NCBI GenBank assembly: GCA_046759445.1
Contig: JBHICG010000042.1
Coordinates: forward strand, 1-29,562
Direction of reading: 5' to 3'
Origin: Candidatus Scalinduaceae bacterium
GTDB taxonomy: Bacteria; Planctomycetota; Brocadiia; Brocadiales; Scalinduaceae
Length of the DNA: 29,562 nt
Shown in pieces: positions 12,400 through 21,629 of this stretch. Under the pieces are notes generated by a model, which had not been told where the DNA came from, made no database searches, and saw nothing but the letters and a program-made list of their open reading frames with translations. Within the stretch, counting starts at the first letter, position 1. Each line of letters begins with the position of its first letter. The translations under genes were made by a program, and so were the position numbers.

Positions 12400-13833
12400 A
12401 TGACCTTTAACCTCAATGATAATATACTGACGATATCCACGCCCACCGGCAGGTCTCTTAGAGCCATTATCAGACTCAGTGGCAAAGATGTCTTTGGTTA
12501 TTTGCAAAATTATTTTGTGCCTGATGATTGTGAGACGATCACGTATGAGAAAGGTTTTCGTTCTTATGAAGGGCACATTTATGTTGAAAAGGAAAAGATT
12601 AATGTCCCCTCACATATCTATGTTATGAAATCTCCAAATTCGTATACAAGAGAAGATATAGTTGAAATCCATACTTTTGGTTCACCTCCATTGCTTGAAA
12701 TGCTTATGGAGGCAATACTCGCATCAGAAAAAATGACTGACTGCAAAATATGTAATAGTGAGGAGGAAATAAGTATTAGGGTTGCAGAACCTGGAGAGTT
12801 TACTAAAAGAGCTTTTTTAAATGGAAGAATAAACCTCACAGAGGCAGAATCTGTACTGCATATAATACGTTCACAGACAGATTCGGAGTTGTCAGTTGCT
12901 GTTTCAAATTTAAAAGGGCAACTGACACAGTTTATGAATGAAATTCAAAGGGAGCTAATAGATCTCTGTGCTAGGATAGAGGCAGCTATAGATTTCTTTG
13001 ATCAGGATATTGAATTAATCTCATTTAAAGAAAAAGAGAGACAAATTGAGCATATGAAAGAGAAATTGAGTAAAATTATTGAAAAAGATCAAGTATCAAG
13101 AATTTCTTATGACGGTATAAAGACTGTTTTTGTTGGCTTGCCAAATGTTGGCAAATCAAGTTTGTTTAACAAACTATTATATCGTTCAAAGGCAATAGTA
13201 ACGCCAATCCATGGTACAACCAGAGATACTTTGAACGGAGACATAAATTTGGAAGGCATAAATTTTAGTATTATTGATACTGCAGGAATTATGTATGGGA
13301 AGGGAGAATTGAAATCTATAATTATGAAGAGAACGTATGATGTTATAGAACATGCCCAAATAGTCTTGTTCGTTATAGACGGGAGTGTGAAACTCTGCGG
13401 AGAACAAGTTGAATTCTTTAATTCCATAACTACGAAAAACAAGATAATCATTATTAATAAGAGCGACATGTTACGAAAGGTTAATTACAAGGATTTTCCC
13501 TTGACGATGAGAGCATTTCCAATAGTTAAAACATCTGCGCATACGGGTGAGGGAGTAGACAAGCTAAAAAAGATAATTGTTGCAAATATCCTGCAAAAGA
13601 ATGTTGACACATACGCTTCAGGCATAGTTTTTACAGTTAGGCAAAGAATAATACTTCTTCGAGCATTTGATATATTAGAGCATATTATTGATTCCTTAAA
13701 CCATGGGATAAGTCATGAACTTATTGCTATCGACTTGAGAAGTTTGATAGGCACCATTGGTGAAGTTACGGGAGAGGTAATTACAGATGATATACTGGAT
13801 ATAATTTTTTCAGAATTCTGTATTGGCAAATAA
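12400..13833 (+). CDS. mnmE: tRNA U34 modification GTPase MnmE (TrmE)
   Basis: SYTREDIVEIHT, AEPGEFTKRAFLNG, G1 GLPNVGKS, GTTRD, DTAG, NKSD, and C-terminal FCIGK. Confidence 0.96.
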   Translation: MTFNLNDNILTISTPTGRSLRAIIRLSGKDVFGYLQNYFVPDDCETITYEKGFRSYEGHIYVEKEKINVPSHIYVMKSPNSYTREDIVEIHTFGSPPLLEMLMEAILASEKMTDCKICNSEEEISIRVAEPGEFTKRAFLNGRINLTEAESVLHIIRSQTDSELSVAVSNLKGQLTQFMNEIQRELIDLCARIEAAIDFFDQDIELISFKEKERQIEHMKEKLSKIIEKDQVSRISYDGIKTVFVGLPNVGKSSLFNKLLYRSKAIVTPIHGTTRDTLNGDINLEGINFSIIDTAGIMYGKGELKSIIMKRTYDVIEHAQIVLFVIDGSVKLCGEQVEFFNSITTKNKIIIINKSDMLRKVNYKDFPLTMRAFPIVKTSAHTGEGVDKLKKIIVANILQKNVDTYASGIVFTVRQRIILLRAFDILEHIIDSLNHGISHELIAIDLRSLIGTIGEVTGEVITDDILDIIFSEFCIGK

Positions 13834-13861
13834 AAATTCAAGATATTTTTTAGAAATTTGC

Positions 13862-13890
13862 TTGACATTCAATATGTTGTATGTTAGGTT
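13862..13890 (+). promoter_or_regulatory. Putative sigma70 promoter of nrdR-nrdD-nrdG
   Basis: TTGACA (13862-13867), 17-nt spacer, TAGGTT (13885-13890) with extended -10 TG. Confidence 0.7.
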
Positions 13891-13913
13891 TCATCACACT
13901 ATATATGTTGATA
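13867..13913. promoter_or_regulatory. Tandem NrdR boxes
   Basis: attCAATATGTTGtat (13867-13882) and actATATATGTTGata (13898-13913) resemble the consensus acaCwAtATaTwGtgt; offset is 31 bp, the spacing typical of tandem NrdR boxes; directly upstream of nrdR-nrdD. Confidence 0.78.
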
Positions 13914-13954
13914 TTGTAGCTTGCATTTTGTGACTAGGTTAATAAATTGCATTT

Positions 13955-14452
13955 ATGCAGTGTATATTTTGCAAAATTGATAATGATAAAGTTATAAACT
14001 CGAGAGCATCAACGGATGGTTTAAGTGTAAAACGAAGACGTAAATGTTTAAATTGTGGTAGAAGATTTACAACATATGAGAGAGTTGAAGATAGTCCTGT
14101 AAGGGTAATAAAAAAGGATGGTAGCAGGGTAAACTTCGATCGTAATAATATACTCACTGGGTTGCTCAAGGCGTGCGAAAAAAGACCTGTGTCAACCGAA
14201 GCGCTTGAAAACATTGTTTCTGAAATAGAAAAAATCATATATGATAAGTTTGAAAGGGAAGTTGAAACAAAATTTGTTGGTGAACTTGTTATGAAGAAGC
14301 TTAAAATTCTTGATAAAGTGGCTTATGTTAGATTTGCATCAGTATATAGGGAATTCAAAGATATAAATGAGTTTTTTAATGAGTTGGAACCCTTAGTATC
14401 TTCTAAGAGAGTAAAGAAAAGTGATAGAAAAAAGAAAGGGGAGGAGCAATGA
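13955..14452 (+). CDS. nrdR: Transcriptional repressor NrdR
   Basis: MQCIFC...KVINSR...RRRKCLNCGRRFTTYE Zn ribbon, ATP cone VIKKDG..FDR, and VAYVRFASVYREF. Confidence 0.97.
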   Translation: MQCIFCKIDNDKVINSRASTDGLSVKRRRKCLNCGRRFTTYERVEDSPVRVIKKDGSRVNFDRNNILTGLLKACEKRPVSTEALENIVSEIEKIIYDKFEREVETKFVGELVMKKLKILDKVAYVRFASVYREFKDINEFFNELEPLVSSKRVKKSDRKKKGEEQ

Positions 14453-16824
14453 CAATAGAAGTAGTTCAAAAGCGTGATGGCAGGTTAGTGCCTTTTGATG
14501 AAAGCAAGATAACGGATGCAATATTCAAGGCGGCAGAAGCTGTTGGTGGTGAAGATAAATCTATTGCGATAGAGCTTGCAAGTGTTGTGATTCATTTTTT
14601 GCAAAAAAGATTTTGTGAGAAAATCCCGGGAATAGAAGATATCCAGGATTTAGTTGAAGAAGTCTTGATCAAGAATGGGCATGCAAAGACTGCGAAGGCT
14701 TATATATTGTATCGAGAAAAAAGGGCCAAAATCCGCAAAAAGCTTCGTGTTAGAAAGCAGACTAAGAAGAATAAAAATACTACTGATGCCGCATTAATGG
14801 TTGAGCAGATTACGAAAGATGAGTCGCTTCCTTGGGATAAGAGGAAAATCATGATAGCTTTAGAAAAAGAAGCTGATTTGCCGGTAGAAATAGCTCAAAA
14901 GATTGCAAATGCTGTTGAAAATCGTATTTTTACTTCAGGCCTGGATAGAATATCTACATCGTTGATTCGTGAGTTAGTGGATAATGAGCTCTTTGAAAGA
15001 GGATACAATGCGAAACTTGAGAAACAAACTACTTTGGGTATGCCAAAGTATAATATTGACCAACTTATATATTCAAAAAACAAAGAAAATAGTAATATAG
15101 CATCCAATAATCCTGAGGCAATTAACCTTGCTGTTGCCGAAAATACTTTGAAACAGTATGCACTGCAAGAAGTGTTTTCTAAGGATGTTGCAGAAGCACA
15201 CATCACGGGGATGGTTCATATCCATGACCTTGGTTATCCAACCAGGGTGTATTGTTCGTCTCATTCTCTTGAATATCTAAAGAAATATGGATTGTCACTG
15301 GAAAATTTGGATACATCTTCTGCGCCTGCTAAACATGCAGGAACGCTTACGGGTCATCTGAACACATTTCTTGCTTCTATGCAGGCATATTATGCAGGTG
15401 CGTTGGGAATAGGTTATATTAATATAATGTATGCGCCATATCTTGAAAAGATGAATTATGATGAAATGAGGCAGGAAGCCCAGCATCTTATCTTTAGTGG
15501 TTCACAAAGCGCTTTTTCTCGTGGAGGGCAAACGTTATTCCTGGATTTTAACATACATACAGGTATACCAAATTATCTTAGAAAAATTCCGGCTATAGGC
15601 CCTGGTGGTAAACCCACAGGTAAAGTGTATGGAGATTATGACTTAGTTTCACAGAGATTTACAAAAGCGATGTTAGATGTATGGCGTAGTGGTGATAGAT
15701 ATGGGCATGTATTTGCATTCCCCAAATGCGATTTGCACATAAGTGCTGATACTTACAATGACCCTAAACAATACGAGCTACTTGAGTATGCTTGTCAGAT
15801 TGCTAGTGAAAATGGAGTGCCGTATTTTGTTTTTGATAGAGATGAAATAACTTTGTCGGCATGTTGTAGGCTGAGAACGACTATTGAAGATAATTATATG
15901 ATTGACCATCCCGAGAGTATGAGATTTTGTGGATTCCAGAACGTTACTGTAAATCTTCCTCAAGCGGCTTACCGTGCTGGTAAAGGGAATTTTAATGAAC
16001 TTTATAATGAGATTGATAAGGCTATAGATATTGCTATTAAGGCACATCTTCAGAAAAAGAAGTTTATTAGCAGGCTTATGTCGGGTCCAGAAATGCCCTT
16101 ATGGGAAATTGGCAAAAAGGCGGCTGATGGAAGGGTTTACGTTGATTTAGAAGCGGCTACTTACATTGTTGGTATTATAGGCTTAAATGAATGTTTACAG
16201 TATATGATCGGTAGAGAATTACATGAAGGAGATGATGTTCTTAAACTTGGTTTGCGAATCATCTCTCATATGTATTTTAGAGTAAAGGAAGAAGGTAGAA
16301 AATACAATTTGAAGTTTTCGCTTGAAGAATCTCCTGCTGAGAGTGCAAGCAGGAGACTCGCAAAGGTTGATGTTAGAAATTATAAAGAAGCTTTAGAGTT
16401 GATTAAAGGTAACATTGAGAAAGATGAATATTACTATACAAATAGTGTTCATTTGCGTCCTGATGCACCTGTAGATATGATTACAAGGATAGATGTACAG
16501 AGTAAGTTTCATAGCATGATCGAGTCTGGCGCAATAATACATGCGTTTGTAGGTGAGGAGAGACCTCCAGCCTCCAGTATTATGAAATTGGTTAGAAAGA
16601 CATTTGAAAATACACAGGCAGCACAATTAACCATATCGCCAGAATTCACAATTTGCAATGAATGTAACCAAGTTACTCCTAGATTAGTGGATGTGTGTAG
16701 TTTCTGCGATTCATCAAATTTTTATGGAATAAGAAGGCGTGGATCTCATGAAGGAATCAACGGGTGGGATAAAACGAGGATTCAGGATTTGGTTGATAGA
16801 TACAAGGAGAATTATAAATTATAG
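14449..16824 (+). CDS. nrdD: Anaerobic (class III) ribonucleoside-triphosphate reductase with two ATP cones and an atypical glycyl-radical loop
   Basis: ATP cone VQKRDG..PFDESKI; HIHDLG, VYC, SRGGQTLF, FAFPK, ACCRL finger loop, EESPAES, YYTNS and CxxC...CxxC Zn site; ATGA overlap with nrdR. Confidence 0.93.
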   Translation: MTIEVVQKRDGRLVPFDESKITDAIFKAAEAVGGEDKSIAIELASVVIHFLQKRFCEKIPGIEDIQDLVEEVLIKNGHAKTAKAYILYREKRAKIRKKLRVRKQTKKNKNTTDAALMVEQITKDESLPWDKRKIMIALEKEADLPVEIAQKIANAVENRIFTSGLDRISTSLIRELVDNELFERGYNAKLEKQTTLGMPKYNIDQLIYSKNKENSNIASNNPEAINLAVAENTLKQYALQEVFSKDVAEAHITGMVHIHDLGYPTRVYCSSHSLEYLKKYGLSLENLDTSSAPAKHAGTLTGHLNTFLASMQAYYAGALGIGYINIMYAPYLEKMNYDEMRQEAQHLIFSGSQSAFSRGGQTLFLDFNIHTGIPNYLRKIPAIGPGGKPTGKVYGDYDLVSQRFTKAMLDVWRSGDRYGHVFAFPKCDLHISADTYNDPKQYELLEYACQIASENGVPYFVFDRDEITLSACCRLRTTIEDNYMIDHPESMRFCGFQNVTVNLPQAAYRAGKGNFNELYNEIDKAIDIAIKAHLQKKKFISRLMSGPEMPLWEIGKKAADGRVYVDLEAATYIVGIIGLNECLQYMIGRELHEGDDVLKLGLRIISHMYFRVKEEGRKYNLKFSLEESPAESASRRLAKVDVRNYKEALELIKGNIEKDEYYYTNSVHLRPDAPVDMITRIDVQSKFHSMIESGAIIHAFVGEERPPASSIMKLVRKTFENTQAAQLTISPEFTICNECNQVTPRLVDVCSFCDSSNFYGIRRRGSHEGINGWDKTRIQDLVDRYKENYKL

Positions 16825-16891
16825 TTAGAAACTGTTCAGAGAATTTTTAAAGAAATCTTAGTTAAGATAAGATTTGTTTTTGAGCGAAAGT

Positions 16892-17626
16892 ATGTCTATA
16901 ATGATAAAGGGTTTTATTGAAAACAGTTTAATAGAGTGGGAAGGGAATATTGTCTCTATTATCTTTCTCCCACATTGTAATTTGAGATGTCCATATTGTC
17001 ATGCTACACATTTAGTTAGAAAGCCCAATGAGCTTGAAAGTATTCCATTGGAAGTAGTATCAGGAAGAGTAGAGCAAAATAAAGGTTGGTTAGATGGTGT
17101 TGTTATTACGGGTGGGGAACCGACGTTTCATGAAGATATAGATATGCTCATAAAAGTTTTCAAAGAGATGGGTTTAAGGGTCAGGGTAGATACAAATGGT
17201 ACGAATCCCAATAAACTGGAGGATTTGATACAAAGGGAATTAATCGATTGTGTAGCTATGGACATAAAGGCTCCTTTGAGGGAAGAAAAATATAGAATGG
17301 TTGCGGAAGCTCCGTGTAATGTATCTGATATTGAAGAAAGCATAAGGATTATAATGGAAAGTGGAATAGAATACGAATTTCGCACTACGGTTTGCCCTGC
17401 TTTTTTAGATGAATTGGATATTATTGAAATTGCTCAGAGCATAAGCGGGGCCAGGAAATATATTTTACAAACATTTAAACCGAATAATTGTTTGGATAGT
17501 AGTATGTTAGATGTCATACCATACTCAGAGGACAAAATTAAAGGTTTTGCAAAAAGGGCAAGGAGATTTGTGAAAGATTGTTATGTTAGAGGCGAGGAAA
17601 TGAAGGCCTTGAGCTGTAATTGGTGA
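16892..17626 (+). CDS. nrdG: Anaerobic RNR activating protein (radical SAM)
   Basis: CNLRCPYCH, GVVITGGEPT, DTNGT, MDIKAP and YEFRTT; follows nrdD. Start is probably ATG 16892 or 16901 rather than TTG 16874. Confidence 0.92.
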   Translation: MSIMIKGFIENSLIEWEGNIVSIIFLPHCNLRCPYCHATHLVRKPNELESIPLEVVSGRVEQNKGWLDGVVITGGEPTFHEDIDMLIKVFKEMGLRVRVDTNGTNPNKLEDLIQRELIDCVAMDIKAPLREEKYRMVAEAPCNVSDIEESIRIIMESGIEYEFRTTVCPAFLDELDIIEIAQSISGARKYILQTFKPNNCLDSSMLDVIPYSEDKIKGFAKRARRFVKDCYVRGEEMKALSCNW

Positions 17627-18047: not shown

Positions 18048-21000
18048 ATGCAGTTAAAAAAATTAGGATTATTTGGCTTTAAATCTTTCCCAGTTAAGAC
18101 GAGCTTCACTTTTGGGGATGGGATTACCATTATCGTAGGTTCTAATGGATGTGGTAAAAGTAATGTCGTCGACGCTATTAAATGGATACTTGGTGAACAG
18201 AGAGCAAAATCACTCAGGGGTAATGAAATGTCAGATGTGATATTTAATGGGACAAGCAAACGCCCCTCTATGGGATATGCGGAAGTTTCACTTACTATTT
18301 TGAATGATAAAAATATGCTACCGTTAGAGTATGAAGAAGTGTGTATTACCAGGCGTCTGTATACCTCAGGTGAATCAGAATACTTAATAAATAAACAACT
18401 TTGTCGCTTGAGAGATATTAAAGAACTTTTCATGGACACGGGGGTAGGGGCCAATTGTTATTCACTTATCGAACAAGGCAGGGTGGATACCTTGTTACAG
18501 GCAAATGCCCAAGAGAAACGTTTGGTCTTTGAGGAGGCAGCTGGTATCAGTAAATACAAAATTAAAAAAAGGGAAGCCATGTTAAAGTTGGAGAAGGTTG
18601 AACAGAATTTACTTCGCTTAAGTGATATAATCGAAGAGGTACAGAAGCAACTCCGTTCTGTAAAACTTCAAGCGGCAAAGGCTCGCAAATATAATGAGTC
18701 TGTAACCAGATTGAACGATTTAAGACTAAAGCTTTCCTTAAAGAAATATAGAATTTTTAAAGCTGAAAGAGCAGATGTTCTGGAACGTATGCAACAGATG
18801 GGTAATCAAAGTCAAGGGGTACTTTCTAAGATTGAAGAAATGGAGGCTAAAAGGGATAGTTTACGAAATTGTATAGATGAACTTGCTTCTAGCCTTGAAC
18901 AGTCCCAGCTTAATTTTTTAAATCTTGACGCAAAAATTACCAATGCAAATGATAGGATAGAATTTAACCATAAGACGACAGAGGAACTTAATACCCAAAA
19001 GGATAAATATGAGAGACAGATTAATATACTTAAAAATAAAATTAAAGAAGCAGAGGGTGAAATTTCTGATTTGACCCAGGGCTTAGAAGAAATACAGAAG
19101 GATCTATCGGATAAGGTTAATTGCTTATCATCAAAAGAAACGGAGTTAAAACAATATTTATTTGAATGTGATATCCTCCAGCAAAAGATAGATGAGAATA
19201 AAAAGAAGGTAATAGACATGCTTCAAAGGGGTGCTAACCTTCAAAATGAGATAGGCAGTTTGAGCGCAGAGAGGGATACTATTGGCAACAGAAAGACTAA
19301 GTTGTTAAGACGACAGGAAGAGATATCATCAGAATTAGGACGTTTAGAGTGTGAAAAACAAGAGCTCACAGAACAAAAGGATAAAACCATAAACGAAATT
19401 AAATCTCTTGAGGATTGTTTGTCCAGGATTAACGAAGAAATAAAGGCATTGAATGATGAAATTCGATCTGTTGGTAATAAAATAAATTTACAACAGCAGT
19501 TGCGAGGTCGGAAAGAATCGCGCCTGGAAATCCTGGAAGACCTTGAAAAGCGTTATGAGGGGGTGGGTTCAGGCGTGAGGGTGATTTTGGAAGAATCCAG
19601 AAAAAATAATGGATTGATAACGGGAATTTATGGAATGATTGCAGATCTGATTAAGGTAGATAGCGCCTATGTACCTGCTATAGAAGCAGTTTTGCGTGAT
19701 AAAGCGCAAATAATAGTTACTAAATCATTAAAAGAAGCAATTCAAGCAATTAACTTTTTAAAAAAGCATGAGAAAGGGCATGTCAGATTTCTTCCGTTGG
19801 AAGATATTAATACGAACAGGCCTGAGACGACTCTAGATTTAAGTATTCCGGGTGTTATAGGAAAAGCAGTTGATTTAGTAAAAAGCGAAGATTGCTTTAG
19901 TTTATTAATTGAGTATATCTTTATGGATACGATTGTAGTTAAAGATTTTGACACGGCATTGACGTTTGTTAATGATAGAAATGGACCTCACTGTATAGTA
20001 ACACTAGATGGGGAAGTGGTTGAGCCAGGTGGGACAATTTTTGTTGGTATGGGCGATATGCATGTCGGGCTTATTTCTCGGAAGACAGAACTTGAAAACA
20101 TTAAATTAGAGCTTGTAAAGATTGAAAAAGAAATTGAAGGGTATGTAAATGAAAAGAGGATTAAAACCGAGGAAGTTGAGAGCCTTAGTAAGGAATCGTA
20201 TGAGATTAAGAAGAAGATAGATGCAGAAAATACTCTTAGAGTCTCAAATGAAAATGATCTTCACAAGGAAGAGTTCAAAATTGTTGAACTTAATGAAGAA
20301 AAGAATATTAATGAAAGTGAGATTAATGAAATAGACGAGCACATCGAAAACATCGATCAAAGAGAAACGAAAATTATTGATGAGATAAAAATATTAAATG
20401 ATAAGCGAAATAATCTGGAAAATCAGGTTGTAGTTTCAGATAATGAGAGAATCCAAAAGGAAAACAGTAAAGTAGATGTTCAAAATGAAATAACAGAGTT
20501 AAAGGTTATTATAGCACAAAAGGAGGAAAGAAGAGATAATATCAATACTTCTAGAGAAAGATTAAAAGATGAATTCCAGAAAAACAAAGAGGAACTTACG
20601 TCCGTTCATAGCGAAATAAGCAATAGTAAAGAAAGGGTTGAAGAATGCGAAACAGAAATTTCAAGTTTAAATAAGTTATTAGAAGAACTTAAAAAAGAGA
20701 AAATCGACATGGAGAGAAATATCGAGACGTTAAAAGAAAAACAAAGCAACAATAATGAGCAGCTAAATGACGTTGATAAACACCTTGATGAATATAGAGA
20801 GGAATATAGGCGAGATGAGCAGAAGATAAATGATTTGAGGTTGAAGGAGAATGAATTTAAGATAAAGATTGAAGATTTAGAAGAGAGAATGCGCGAAGAT
20901 TATCATGTTGAGCTATCTGATCGAGATTTGGAGTGTAAAGGAGAAGATAGTGAATCTATTGATTGGGAGAATGTTTCTCAGGAGATTGATCTATTAAGGG

Positions 21001-21629
21001 GCAAGATAGAAAGAATGGGCAACGTCAATTTGGAAGCTATTCAGGAGCAGAAAGAACTTGAGGTGAGAGAGGCGCATCTTATGGAGCAAAAAGAGGATAT
21101 TCAAAAGTCAGAGAGAAGTTTGAAAGATATCGTAAAAAAGATAAATGTTACAAGTAGAGAATTATTTGAAAAAGCATTTCACGAAATAAGAAAGAATTTC
21201 CATGAATTGTTTCGTAAATTGTTTGGTGGCGGCAGGGCGGATATTATCTTAGAGGAAGGTGTTGATATTCTGGATGCGGGTATAGACATAATTGCTCAAC
21301 CTCCAGGGAAGGAACTTAAATCAATTACGCTTTTTTCGGGAGGTGAGAACGTTATGACAACGATCGCTCTATTGTTTGCCATATTTCAGTCTAAACCAAG
21401 TCCATTCTGTATACTTGATGAAGTTGATGCAGCCTTAGATGAAAACAACATTAATCGTTTTCTTCAGATACTTAAGGAATTTACAAAAATATCTCAATTT
21501 ATTATTATAACACACAATAAGCAGACTATAAGTATAGCCGATGTATTGTATGGGGTCACAATGGAGGAAGCAGGGGTATCAAAGAAGGTATCAGTAAAAT
21601 TTAAAGAAGAAGCAAGGCAGGTTGCATAA
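18048..21629 (+). CDS. smc: Chromosome segregation protein SMC
   Basis: GFKSF, Walker A GSNGCGKSN, SLRG..MSDVIF, IEQG, long coiled coils around a hinge (GHVRFLPL, VTLDGE), signature FSGGE, Walker B/D-loop LDEVDAALD, and ITH. Confidence 0.97.
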   Translation: MQLKKLGLFGFKSFPVKTSFTFGDGITIIVGSNGCGKSNVVDAIKWILGEQRAKSLRGNEMSDVIFNGTSKRPSMGYAEVSLTILNDKNMLPLEYEEVCITRRLYTSGESEYLINKQLCRLRDIKELFMDTGVGANCYSLIEQGRVDTLLQANAQEKRLVFEEAAGISKYKIKKREAMLKLEKVEQNLLRLSDIIEEVQKQLRSVKLQAAKARKYNESVTRLNDLRLKLSLKKYRIFKAERADVLERMQQMGNQSQGVLSKIEEMEAKRDSLRNCIDELASSLEQSQLNFLNLDAKITNANDRIEFNHKTTEELNTQKDKYERQINILKNKIKEAEGEISDLTQGLEEIQKDLSDKVNCLSSKETELKQYLFECDILQQKIDENKKKVIDMLQRGANLQNEIGSLSAERDTIGNRKTKLLRRQEEISSELGRLECEKQELTEQKDKTINEIKSLEDCLSRINEEIKALNDEIRSVGNKINLQQQLRGRKESRLEILEDLEKRYEGVGSGVRVILEESRKNNGLITGIYGMIADLIKVDSAYVPAIEAVLRDKAQIIVTKSLKEAIQAINFLKKHEKGHVRFLPLEDINTNRPETTLDLSIPGVIGKAVDLVKSEDCFSLLIEYIFMDTIVVKDFDTALTFVNDRNGPHCIVTLDGEVVEPGGTIFVGMGDMHVGLISRKTELENIKLELVKIEKEIEGYVNEKRIKTEEVESLSKESYEIKKKIDAENTLRVSNENDLHKEEFKIVELNEEKNINESEINEIDEHIENIDQRETKIIDEIKILNDKRNNLENQVVVSDNERIQKENSKVDVQNEITELKVIIAQKEERRDNINTSRERLKDEFQKNKEELTSVHSEISNSKERVEECETEISSLNKLLEELKKEKIDMERNIETLKEKQSNNNEQLNDVDKHLDEYREEYRRDEQKINDLRLKENEFKIKIEDLEERMREDYHVELSDRDLECKGEDSESIDWENVSQEIDLLRGKIERMGNVNLEAIQEQKELEVREAHLMEQKEDIQKSERSLKDIVKKINVTSRELFEKAFHEIRKNFHELFRKLFGGGRADIILEEGVDILDAGIDIIAQPPGKELKSITLFSGGENVMTTIALLFAIFQSKPSPFCILDEVDAALDENNINRFLQILKEFTKISQFIIITHNKQTISIADVLYGVTMEEAGVSKKVSVKFKEEARQVA

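Follow-up and report, generated by a model that had tools for sequence, protein, structure and literature searches.

Ribonucleotide reductases (RNRs) of class I (NrdA with NrdB) store a stable radical on a separate subunit, from which it is passed to the catalytic subunit. In the canonical class III enzymes, represented by those of Prevotella copri (8P23), phage T4 (1H78/1H79) and Thermotoga maritima (4COI/4U3E), a single chain, NrdD, bears the radical loop and works with the activase NrdG. The accessible portion of a 2026 review describes spare-part proteins, among glycyl-radical enzymes, only for the formate lyases (PMC13450708). [quoted passage not shown] In this report, we found that the nrdD gene in a 29,562-nucleotide stretch of DNA from a Candidatus Scalinduaceae bacterium (the whole of this stretch is termed the window) encodes a protein whose own radical loop has decayed, and that the same genome encodes a canonical loop of the NrdD type on a small, separate protein. 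We consider it likely that the loop of this NrdD is vestigial and that the radical is carried by the separate protein of 154 residues, which NrdG would activate and whose loop would be inserted into the NrdD barrel.

The NrdD of the window is of the same family as the canonical chains and has their order of domains. It shares with them the ATP-cone, the ten-stranded barrel, the finger-loop cysteines, the C-terminal zinc ribbon and an adjacent nrdG, and its best match among solved structures is 8P23 (1.2e-31). The family models, the cysteines, the zinc ribbon and NrdG were all found, and a cis RxxGY loop was not; judged from its sequence, the large subunit belongs with NrdD in all tested respects except the defining cis glycine. 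Where 8P23 has the radical loop LQRITGYL, this protein has RRRGSH, in which no Gly is conserved, and the canonical loop lies on a second polypeptide encoded elsewhere. Past the intact zinc ribbon the chain reads YGIRRRGSHEGINGWDKTRIQDLVDR (more fully, SSNFYGIRRRGSHEGINGWDKTRIQDLVDRYKENYKL), and its open reading frame (ORF) ends in ...CNECNQVTPRLVDVCSFCDSSNFYGIRRRGSHEGINGWDKTRIQDLVDRYKENYKL. Positions 16726-16803 of the window encode G760-Y785, with G765 specified by GGA at 16741-16743. An earlier, sequence-only reading of the window had described the loop as degenerate, with an Arg at -3 and a Trp at +8 from G765, and as one residue short; translation of the ORF bears out both descriptions. 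The canonical distance to W773 is kept and the following Tyr is absent, and between N757 and W773 this protein, like the others of the window's family, spans 16 positions, versus 17 in canonical relatives (GISRIVGYFSRINNW).

Our sample of the order comprised 41 genomes, namely that of the window (G000) and 40 relatives; NrdD was found in 38 of them, and its C-terminus was read at 30 loci. The families of the order are coded f1 (the window's family) and f2 to f5. The degenerate loop is neither a frameshift nor an assembly error, because a contig from an independent DNA run of a different study (X3) spans 16674-16939 with 0 differences, and because RxxGY is absent from all 19 of the f1 orthologs read. 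Further, no alternative ORF of at least 60 amino acids in the + frames overlaps the loop. The sequence-only reading had likewise argued against a simple frameshift, and the assembly error that it had named as one thing that would refute it is contradicted by the identical contig.

What remains of the loop is poorly conserved. Position 765 is Gly in only one of the 19 f1 orthologs; it is Val in both genomes of the same genus, and Asp, Ala or Glu in the others. When entropy was scanned in segments of 9 residues over the 19 f1 sequences, 762-770 proved the most variable segment of the whole protein, with 1.48 bits compared with a mean of 0.34 overall and 0.25 over residues 200-755. We therefore read the loop as vestigial rather than as a divergent radical site, the latter having been among the suggestions of the sequence-only reading. 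That a divergent cis site nevertheless works, at G765 or at another residue of NrdD, is hardly credible. The spacing to W773, the Arg at -3 and the presence of a Gly one or two positions away in some relatives (RMGCNG in f5, KGGCC in f3) are what such a site would have to build on, but G765 is replaced even within the genus, the f3 protein at L033 has no Gly anywhere in its loop, the Tyr after the glycine is missing, and no part of the protein is less conserved. The tail beyond the loop is still under constraint, with W773 invariant in 30 orthologs and N771, L781 and R784 retained in at least 90% of them. An AlphaFold2 model of NrdD alone, made from a 30-row alignment, was too poor to place the vestigial tail, with a mean predicted local distance difference test score (pLDDT) of 54.

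PF13597 matches the assembly to which the window belongs (3.62 Mb, 97% complete, 2.3% estimated contamination) in two places. One is NrdD; the other is a frame of 170 codons on contig C139 (1,976 bp), which matches profile positions 532-560 only. This second gene (G000:C139:599-1060, minus strand, outside the window) encodes 154 residues, counted from a conserved GTG start. Its product has a canonical loop of the NrdD type, GITRIVGYYSRVTNWNKSKVGELRDR, with neither barrel nor zinc ribbon; the ORF reads ...VLNGITRIVGYYSRVTNWNKSKVGELRDRANGQY (in a longer excerpt, ...RSPIVLNGITRIVGYYSRVTNWNKSKVGELRDRANGQYGLTGKK...). This is the only NrdD-type RxxGY loop that the PF13597 search found in the genome, and PF01228, the radical domain of the PFL/GrcA type, gave no match there at E<=0.001. 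The sequence-only reading had proposed looking for just such a small stand-alone protein, having raised complementation in trans by a separate glycyl-radical domain; together with its order-wide occurrence and its operon linkage elsewhere (see below), the protein of C139 makes complementation in trans the reading that the evidence favors.

Among 30 small proteins of the order, T106, R107, I108, V109, G110, Y111, S113, N117, W118, N119, S121, K122, E125, L126, D128 and R129 are invariant, and with them the loop pattern TRIVGY..S...NWN.SK..EL.DR. The vestigial segment of NrdD aligns both with the radical loop of 8P23 and with this loop; according to hhalign, homology between the small protein and NrdD is limited to the last 39 columns (102-141 versus 758-791, probability 97.5). 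The notion that the N-terminal domain of the small protein copies a part of the NrdD barrel was dropped because of this limit. AlphaFold2 models the isolated small protein (mean pLDDT 65.5) with a folded alpha/beta N-domain at about residues 10-95 (pLDDT ~80) and an unstructured radical loop at 97-120 (pLDDT 30-37). We also note that the f1 members have a conserved C-terminal extension of about 20 residues (YGLTG..P.FQ.DRL.MIDSL; columns 155-191 of the A1 alignment), which is missing in f2, f3 and f4 and present in many metagenomic homologs.

Loss of the cis motif is widespread in the order. RxxGY has been lost from 25 of the 30 NrdD C-termini read (19 in f1, three in f2, two in f3 and one in f5), and the canonical GISRIVGYFSRINNWNKSKIGELADR is kept in five, all in f4. 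The replacements in f1 are one residue shorter (RRLVSH, RKRVSH, KRRDSH, KRSALQ, KRNATQ and similar), those in f2 have Ser at the glycine position (RTDSY), and those in f3 and f5 have Cys (KGGCCSKK, SNSCCSKK, RMGCNG). A tree of 55 NrdD rows, from which the columns after the zinc ribbon were left out, requires at least six changes of the glycine state, and its well-supported branches alone force two to three. Loss of the cis glycine is therefore polyphyletic and recurrent, which fits the different kinds of decay in f1, f2 and f3/f5. The NrdD of one near-complete f4 genome reads as two pieces that overlap, and a single TGA lies in frame (G031:C5:1880183-1882556); this could be a frameshift, a selenocysteine codon or a sequencing error.

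Of the 41 genomes sampled in the order, 40 proved to encode the small protein, among them f4 genomes in which NrdD is canonical; sequence identity is 65-79% within f1, and for the other families it is about 40-54%. In a second sample, 81 genomes of Planctomycetota with at least 90% completeness, a glycine-less NrdD occurs with the small protein in G056 and G075, and in G074 with no small protein found. G057 has a distant glycine-less NrdD-like protein, with no small protein found, and none of the ten genomes with a canonical NrdD of the same subclass has the small protein. Four complete chromosomes of Planctomycetota each encode one glycine-less NrdD (...RRE.SD.SNCC.WN...) and an unlinked small protein. 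The sequence-only reading had held that its interpretation would fall if the variant were common among active NrdDs: glycine-less NrdDs are indeed common, but they nearly always come with the small protein.

The three f4 genomes of this sample, and one Clostridia genome, have the canonical NrdD and the small protein together, a situation like that of GrcA. From this one might suppose that the small protein is a mere spare part or regulator of radical supply, and that the glycine-less NrdD obtains its thiyl radical by another route. We judge this improbable, as there is no sign of another source of the radical: NrdG has no second activase of its type beside it, the only NrdD-type RxxGY loop found in the genome is that of the small protein, and the cis glycine has been lost repeatedly only in lineages with the small protein, as would fit a dependence on that protein.

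The family of small proteins reaches well beyond the order. When a profile of the 30 members was run on 1.84 billion representatives, 843 hits were obtained at E<=1e-3, and 338 at the stricter E<=1e-10. All of the best 150 among the 843 are 74-207 amino acids long; R..G[YF] is present in 148, and a zinc ribbon in two, which are NrdD fragments. The family is marked by a C-terminal [TS]R[IV]VGY[YF]S...NWN.SK..EL.DR..G.Y in a protein of about 100-170 residues with no zinc ribbon, and the protein of this genome conforms. Ten members compared with Pfam and NCBIfam matched no dedicated family, only the last ~30 positions of the NrdD models, mostly below the cut-off. In the source databases, the small proteins are named "hypothetical protein" or [quoted passage not shown].

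In other phyla, the gene for the small protein can stand beside nrdD. A scan of one genome per species with a 12-row alignment yielded at least 599 stretches, of which 594 of 599 were confirmed; 80 loci were kept, from Planctomycetota, Elusimicrobiota, Omnitrophota, Clostridia, Auribacterota, UBP3 and Brocadiales. The open frame that bears the motif is no longer than 220 codons, and has no zinc ribbon, at 78 of these 80 loci. The small gene directly follows nrdD at eight loci (L110, L115, L117, L125, L130, L141, L143 and L147, from Elusimicrobiota, Auribacterota, UBP3 and unclassified metagenome-assembled genomes), with gaps of -8 to 136 nucleotides and in the order nrdR-nrdD-small-nrdG or nrdG-nrdD-small. 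Seven of these loci also include nrdG, which is unseen in L125, where the contig end cuts the locus. None of the eight operon-linked NrdDs has RxxGY: four stop 12-16 residues past the zinc ribbon, that of L125 stops 10 past it, and three end in an unrelated tail. A canonical one-piece NrdD from the same scan (L146) served as a control. At another locus, in a Planctomycetota genome, the NrdD-type radical loop lies at residue 505 of a 540-codon frame with no zinc ribbon (L104, 4714..6333, +); here the radical module may have become fused to a different protein.

The vestigial loop of NrdD, the conserved stand-alone loop protein and the operon linkage in other phyla therefore argue together for a class III RNR made of two pieces, in which the radical subunit is detached and resembles GrcA. 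Outside the loop, the catalytic chain is maintained. The mean column identity of 30 NrdD orthologs is 79%, and C269, C472, C473, E631, the zinc-ribbon cysteines C736, C739, C750 and C753, and W773 are invariant among them. We take C269, C472 and C473 (ACCRL) to be the active-site and finger-loop cysteines, and E631 to be the glutamate of the thioredoxin-type subclass. At all 30 ortholog loci, nrdD is adjoined by both nrdR and an nrdG with an intact CX3CX2C motif; in the window, this motif of NrdG reads CNLRCPYC, and its gene is the only NrdG2 above the cut-off in the whole genome. These residues and the adjacent nrdG had been listed as retained in the sequence-only reading, rightly so. The pairwise ratio of nonsynonymous to synonymous substitution rates (dN/dS; NG86 method) for NrdD residues 200-755 is 0.014-0.064 in the glycine-less lineages and 0.014-0.019 in f4; for the small proteins, dN/dS is 0.045-0.26. 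Both NrdD outside its loop and the small protein are thus under strong purifying selection. Some contigs from two RNA libraries treated with DNase coincide with parts of nrdD and nrdG at 0 differences, which hints, though weakly, at transcription.

A class II-type RNR, which the sequence-only reading had suggested looking for, is encoded in the genome as well. It is short (576 amino acids), with PF02867 in two stretches (G000:C52:507-2237; L003), and the genome therefore has an oxygen-tolerant route to deoxyribonucleoside triphosphates (dNTPs) beside the class III enzyme. NrdD thus need not be essential and, with its cis radical site gone and the small gene unlinked in this genome, could be an inactive relic or have a non-catalytic role, dNTPs being made by the class II enzyme and the small protein having nothing to do with NrdD. 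This we regard as improbable. The dN/dS of the catalytic part lies in the same range as in relatives with a canonical loop, the catalytic and zinc-binding residues are invariant, nrdG and nrdR have stayed beside nrdD at every locus, and pieces of nrdD and nrdG occur, if only as weak evidence for transcription, among the RNA-library contigs. The earlier suggestion that the enzyme is losing activity runs against the same selection values and the same retention of the activase gene.

If the two-piece enzyme exists, we envisage that the small protein docks on NrdD, perhaps via its N-terminal alpha/beta domain of about 95 residues, and that NrdG abstracts a hydrogen from its G110. The loop of the small protein would then enter the NrdD barrel beside the finger loop of C472/C473, and the radical would move from G110 to the thiyl cysteine of NrdD. 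The small chain would act as a replaceable radical cartridge, since O2 would destroy only that chain. Two published observations make this mechanism plausible. The radical domain of P. copri NrdD is highly mobile by cryo-electron microscopy and hydrogen-deuterium exchange (PMC11226230), and full-length E. coli PflB G734A makes formate in vivo when GrcA is present (++) and none when GrcA is absent (PMC12338860, Table 1).

Indeed, GrcA with PflB G734A is a laboratory analog of the natural state seen here. We liken the small protein to GrcA in how it would work, and place it outside the GrcA sequence family. Its loop is of the NrdD type, not PF01228, and only the last ~30 positions of PF13597 match it; its N-terminus is predicted to be folded, whereas that of GrcA is disordered, according to PMC13450708. 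Further, GrcA backs up an enzyme that has its own glycine, whereas the NrdD of the window has none, so here the small protein would be obligatory. Other RNRs offer partial parallels. In the split class II RNR NrdJa/NrdJb of Pseudomonas aeruginosa, a C-terminal functional module is likewise on a separate polypeptide, as PMC9669993 describes, but that split removes the reduction module with its zinc finger and cysteine pair, not a radical-storing element, and the two genes are adjacent. The likeness to class I RNR lies in the placement of the radical on a separate subunit (see the introduction of PMC9669993); there, however, a tyrosyl or metal radical is stored in a ferritin-like protein and transferred over a long range, with no glycyl loop entering the barrel.

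Several facts weigh against this two-piece model. In this genome the small gene lies apart from the nrd operon, so that adjacency to nrdD or nrdG is lacking, and it lies on the short contig C139 of a metagenome-assembled genome with the contamination given above. The zinc ribbon, an element missing from the small protein, is thought to stabilize the radical loop in canonical NrdD (PMC9669993). The constrained NrdD tail, N771-R784, is not explained by a two-piece model and could compete for the same site. In two genomes, G025 (f2, 96% complete) and G074 (93% complete), NrdD is glycine-less and the small protein was not found even with profiles, and three others, G018, G022 and G040 (79%, 93% and 85% complete), have the small protein with no NrdD found; all five mismatches may be assembly gaps. 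The fold of the N-domain gave no Foldseek hit in the Protein Data Bank at E<=0.001, and the best VIA Z was 4.5. Finally, a gene that is not an nrd gene comes after the small gene at 22 of the 30 loci examined in the order, that of this genome among them.

That gene encodes a BadF/BcrA-type ATPase fused to a dehydratase-like domain and lies directly downstream of the small gene (for example, L002 2..364, -, which is G000:C139, and L046 2316..3470, +). Its recurrence raises the question of whether the small protein serves another system, such as this neighboring ATPase-dehydratase-like protein, as its radical subunit or substrate, and has a likeness to the NrdD tail and nothing more. We think this very unlikely. 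The synteny is confined to f1 and f3, the neighbors in f4 are different, and in other phyla the neighbors are nrdD, nrdG and nrdR; further, the loop matches NrdD models, not PF01228, and the PF01228 search detected no further glycyl-radical enzyme family in the genome.

As to how a two-piece enzyme could have arisen, a stand-alone radical-domain protein may first have coexisted with a canonical NrdD, a state that would be kept in f4 and in the Clostridia genome. Coexistence would have made the cis glycine dispensable, so that it decayed several times, leaving a vestigial tail here and a truncation right after the zinc ribbon in Elusimicrobiota. More tentatively, it is possible that class III RNR exists in nature as a two-subunit enzyme whose detachable glycyl-radical small protein arose as a spare part, and in which the built-in glycine was lost many times. 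The Scalindua-type anammox bacteria would then represent an intermediate stage, in which NrdD is still of full length and its loop is a fossil. Such a design would let a cell make good a radical destroyed by O2 by swapping a 17-kDa cartridge in place of a 90-kDa enzyme, and the freed tail, with its pair of cysteines, may serve as a redox shuttle in some lineages. Such adjacent Cys-Cys pairs occur at or near the former Gly-Tyr in several glycine-less NrdD tails: KGGCCSKK and SNSCCSKK in f3 (L029, L033), and SNCC.WN and ENCCAW in L153-L156 (G041-G044) and L182 (G075). They are absent from f1, and could be redox-active pairs like those in the tails of class I and class II RNRs.

The arrangement of the nrd genes in the window is given in Table 1.

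Table 1. Positions of the nrd genes, of elements within nrdD and of the flanking genes in the window
Feature	Position	Strand	Remarks
GTPase-like ORF (477 aa)	12400-13833		upstream of the nrd genes; probably MnmE/TrmE, by sequence only
nrdR (165 aa)	13955..14452	+	repressor gene upstream of nrdD; PF22811 Zn_ribbon_NrdR 8e-19 and ATP-cone 1e-23
nrdD, class III RNR catalytic subunit (791 aa), no radical glycine of its own	14449..16824	+	PF13597, 3e-113, 379.7 bits (cut-off 26.2); TIGR02487, 362 bits (cut-off 326.35); ATP-cone in two stretches
Zinc ribbon CxxC...CxxC (C736, C739, C750, C753; CNEC...CSFC), retained	16654..16707	+	
Vestigial glycyl-radical loop, residues 762-770 (RRRGSHEGI)	16732..16758	+	replaces canonical RIVGYFSRI
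Conserved C-terminal tail N771-R784 (NxW[DN]..[KR]..[ED]L..R)	16759..16800	+	still constrained
nrdG, radical-SAM activase (250 aa)	16874..17626	+	TIGR02495 NrdG2, 184.5 bits (cut-off 131.15)
SMC-like coiled-coil ATPase (1193 aa)	18048-21629		downstream of the nrd genes

The flanking genes look ordinary. The sequence-only reading had listed NrdR boxes as retained; a search with a box consensus, at up to two mismatches, found none near nrdR, and only a box-like AT-rich palindrome is present at about 13870-13911. The sequence upstream of nrdR at 13860-13915 is AT-rich and partly palindromic, and has the look of NrdR boxes (for example, ACACTATATATGTTGA at 13896-13911).

We found no description of a split or two-piece NrdD, or of a stand-alone NrdD radical protein, in a literature search that lay mostly outside subscription journals. 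An RNR-wide phylogeny dropped sequences of fewer than 400 residues (PMC9531940), so small radical proteins would have been missed. What is new here is thus that a trans radical design, so far described only for pyruvate formate-lyase, is likely to operate in an anaerobic RNR. The window contributes an intermediate stage, a full-length and constrained NrdD with a fossil radical loop. If the two-piece model is true, it would change how class III RNRs are recognized in genomes, and the pair would be a natural, obligate counterpart of the experiment with GrcA and PflB G734A. It would also offer a system for the study of the way in which a glycyl loop is passed by an activase into a barrel. Further, it might bear on the supply of dNTPs in oxygen-exposed anaerobes such as the marine anammox bacteria.

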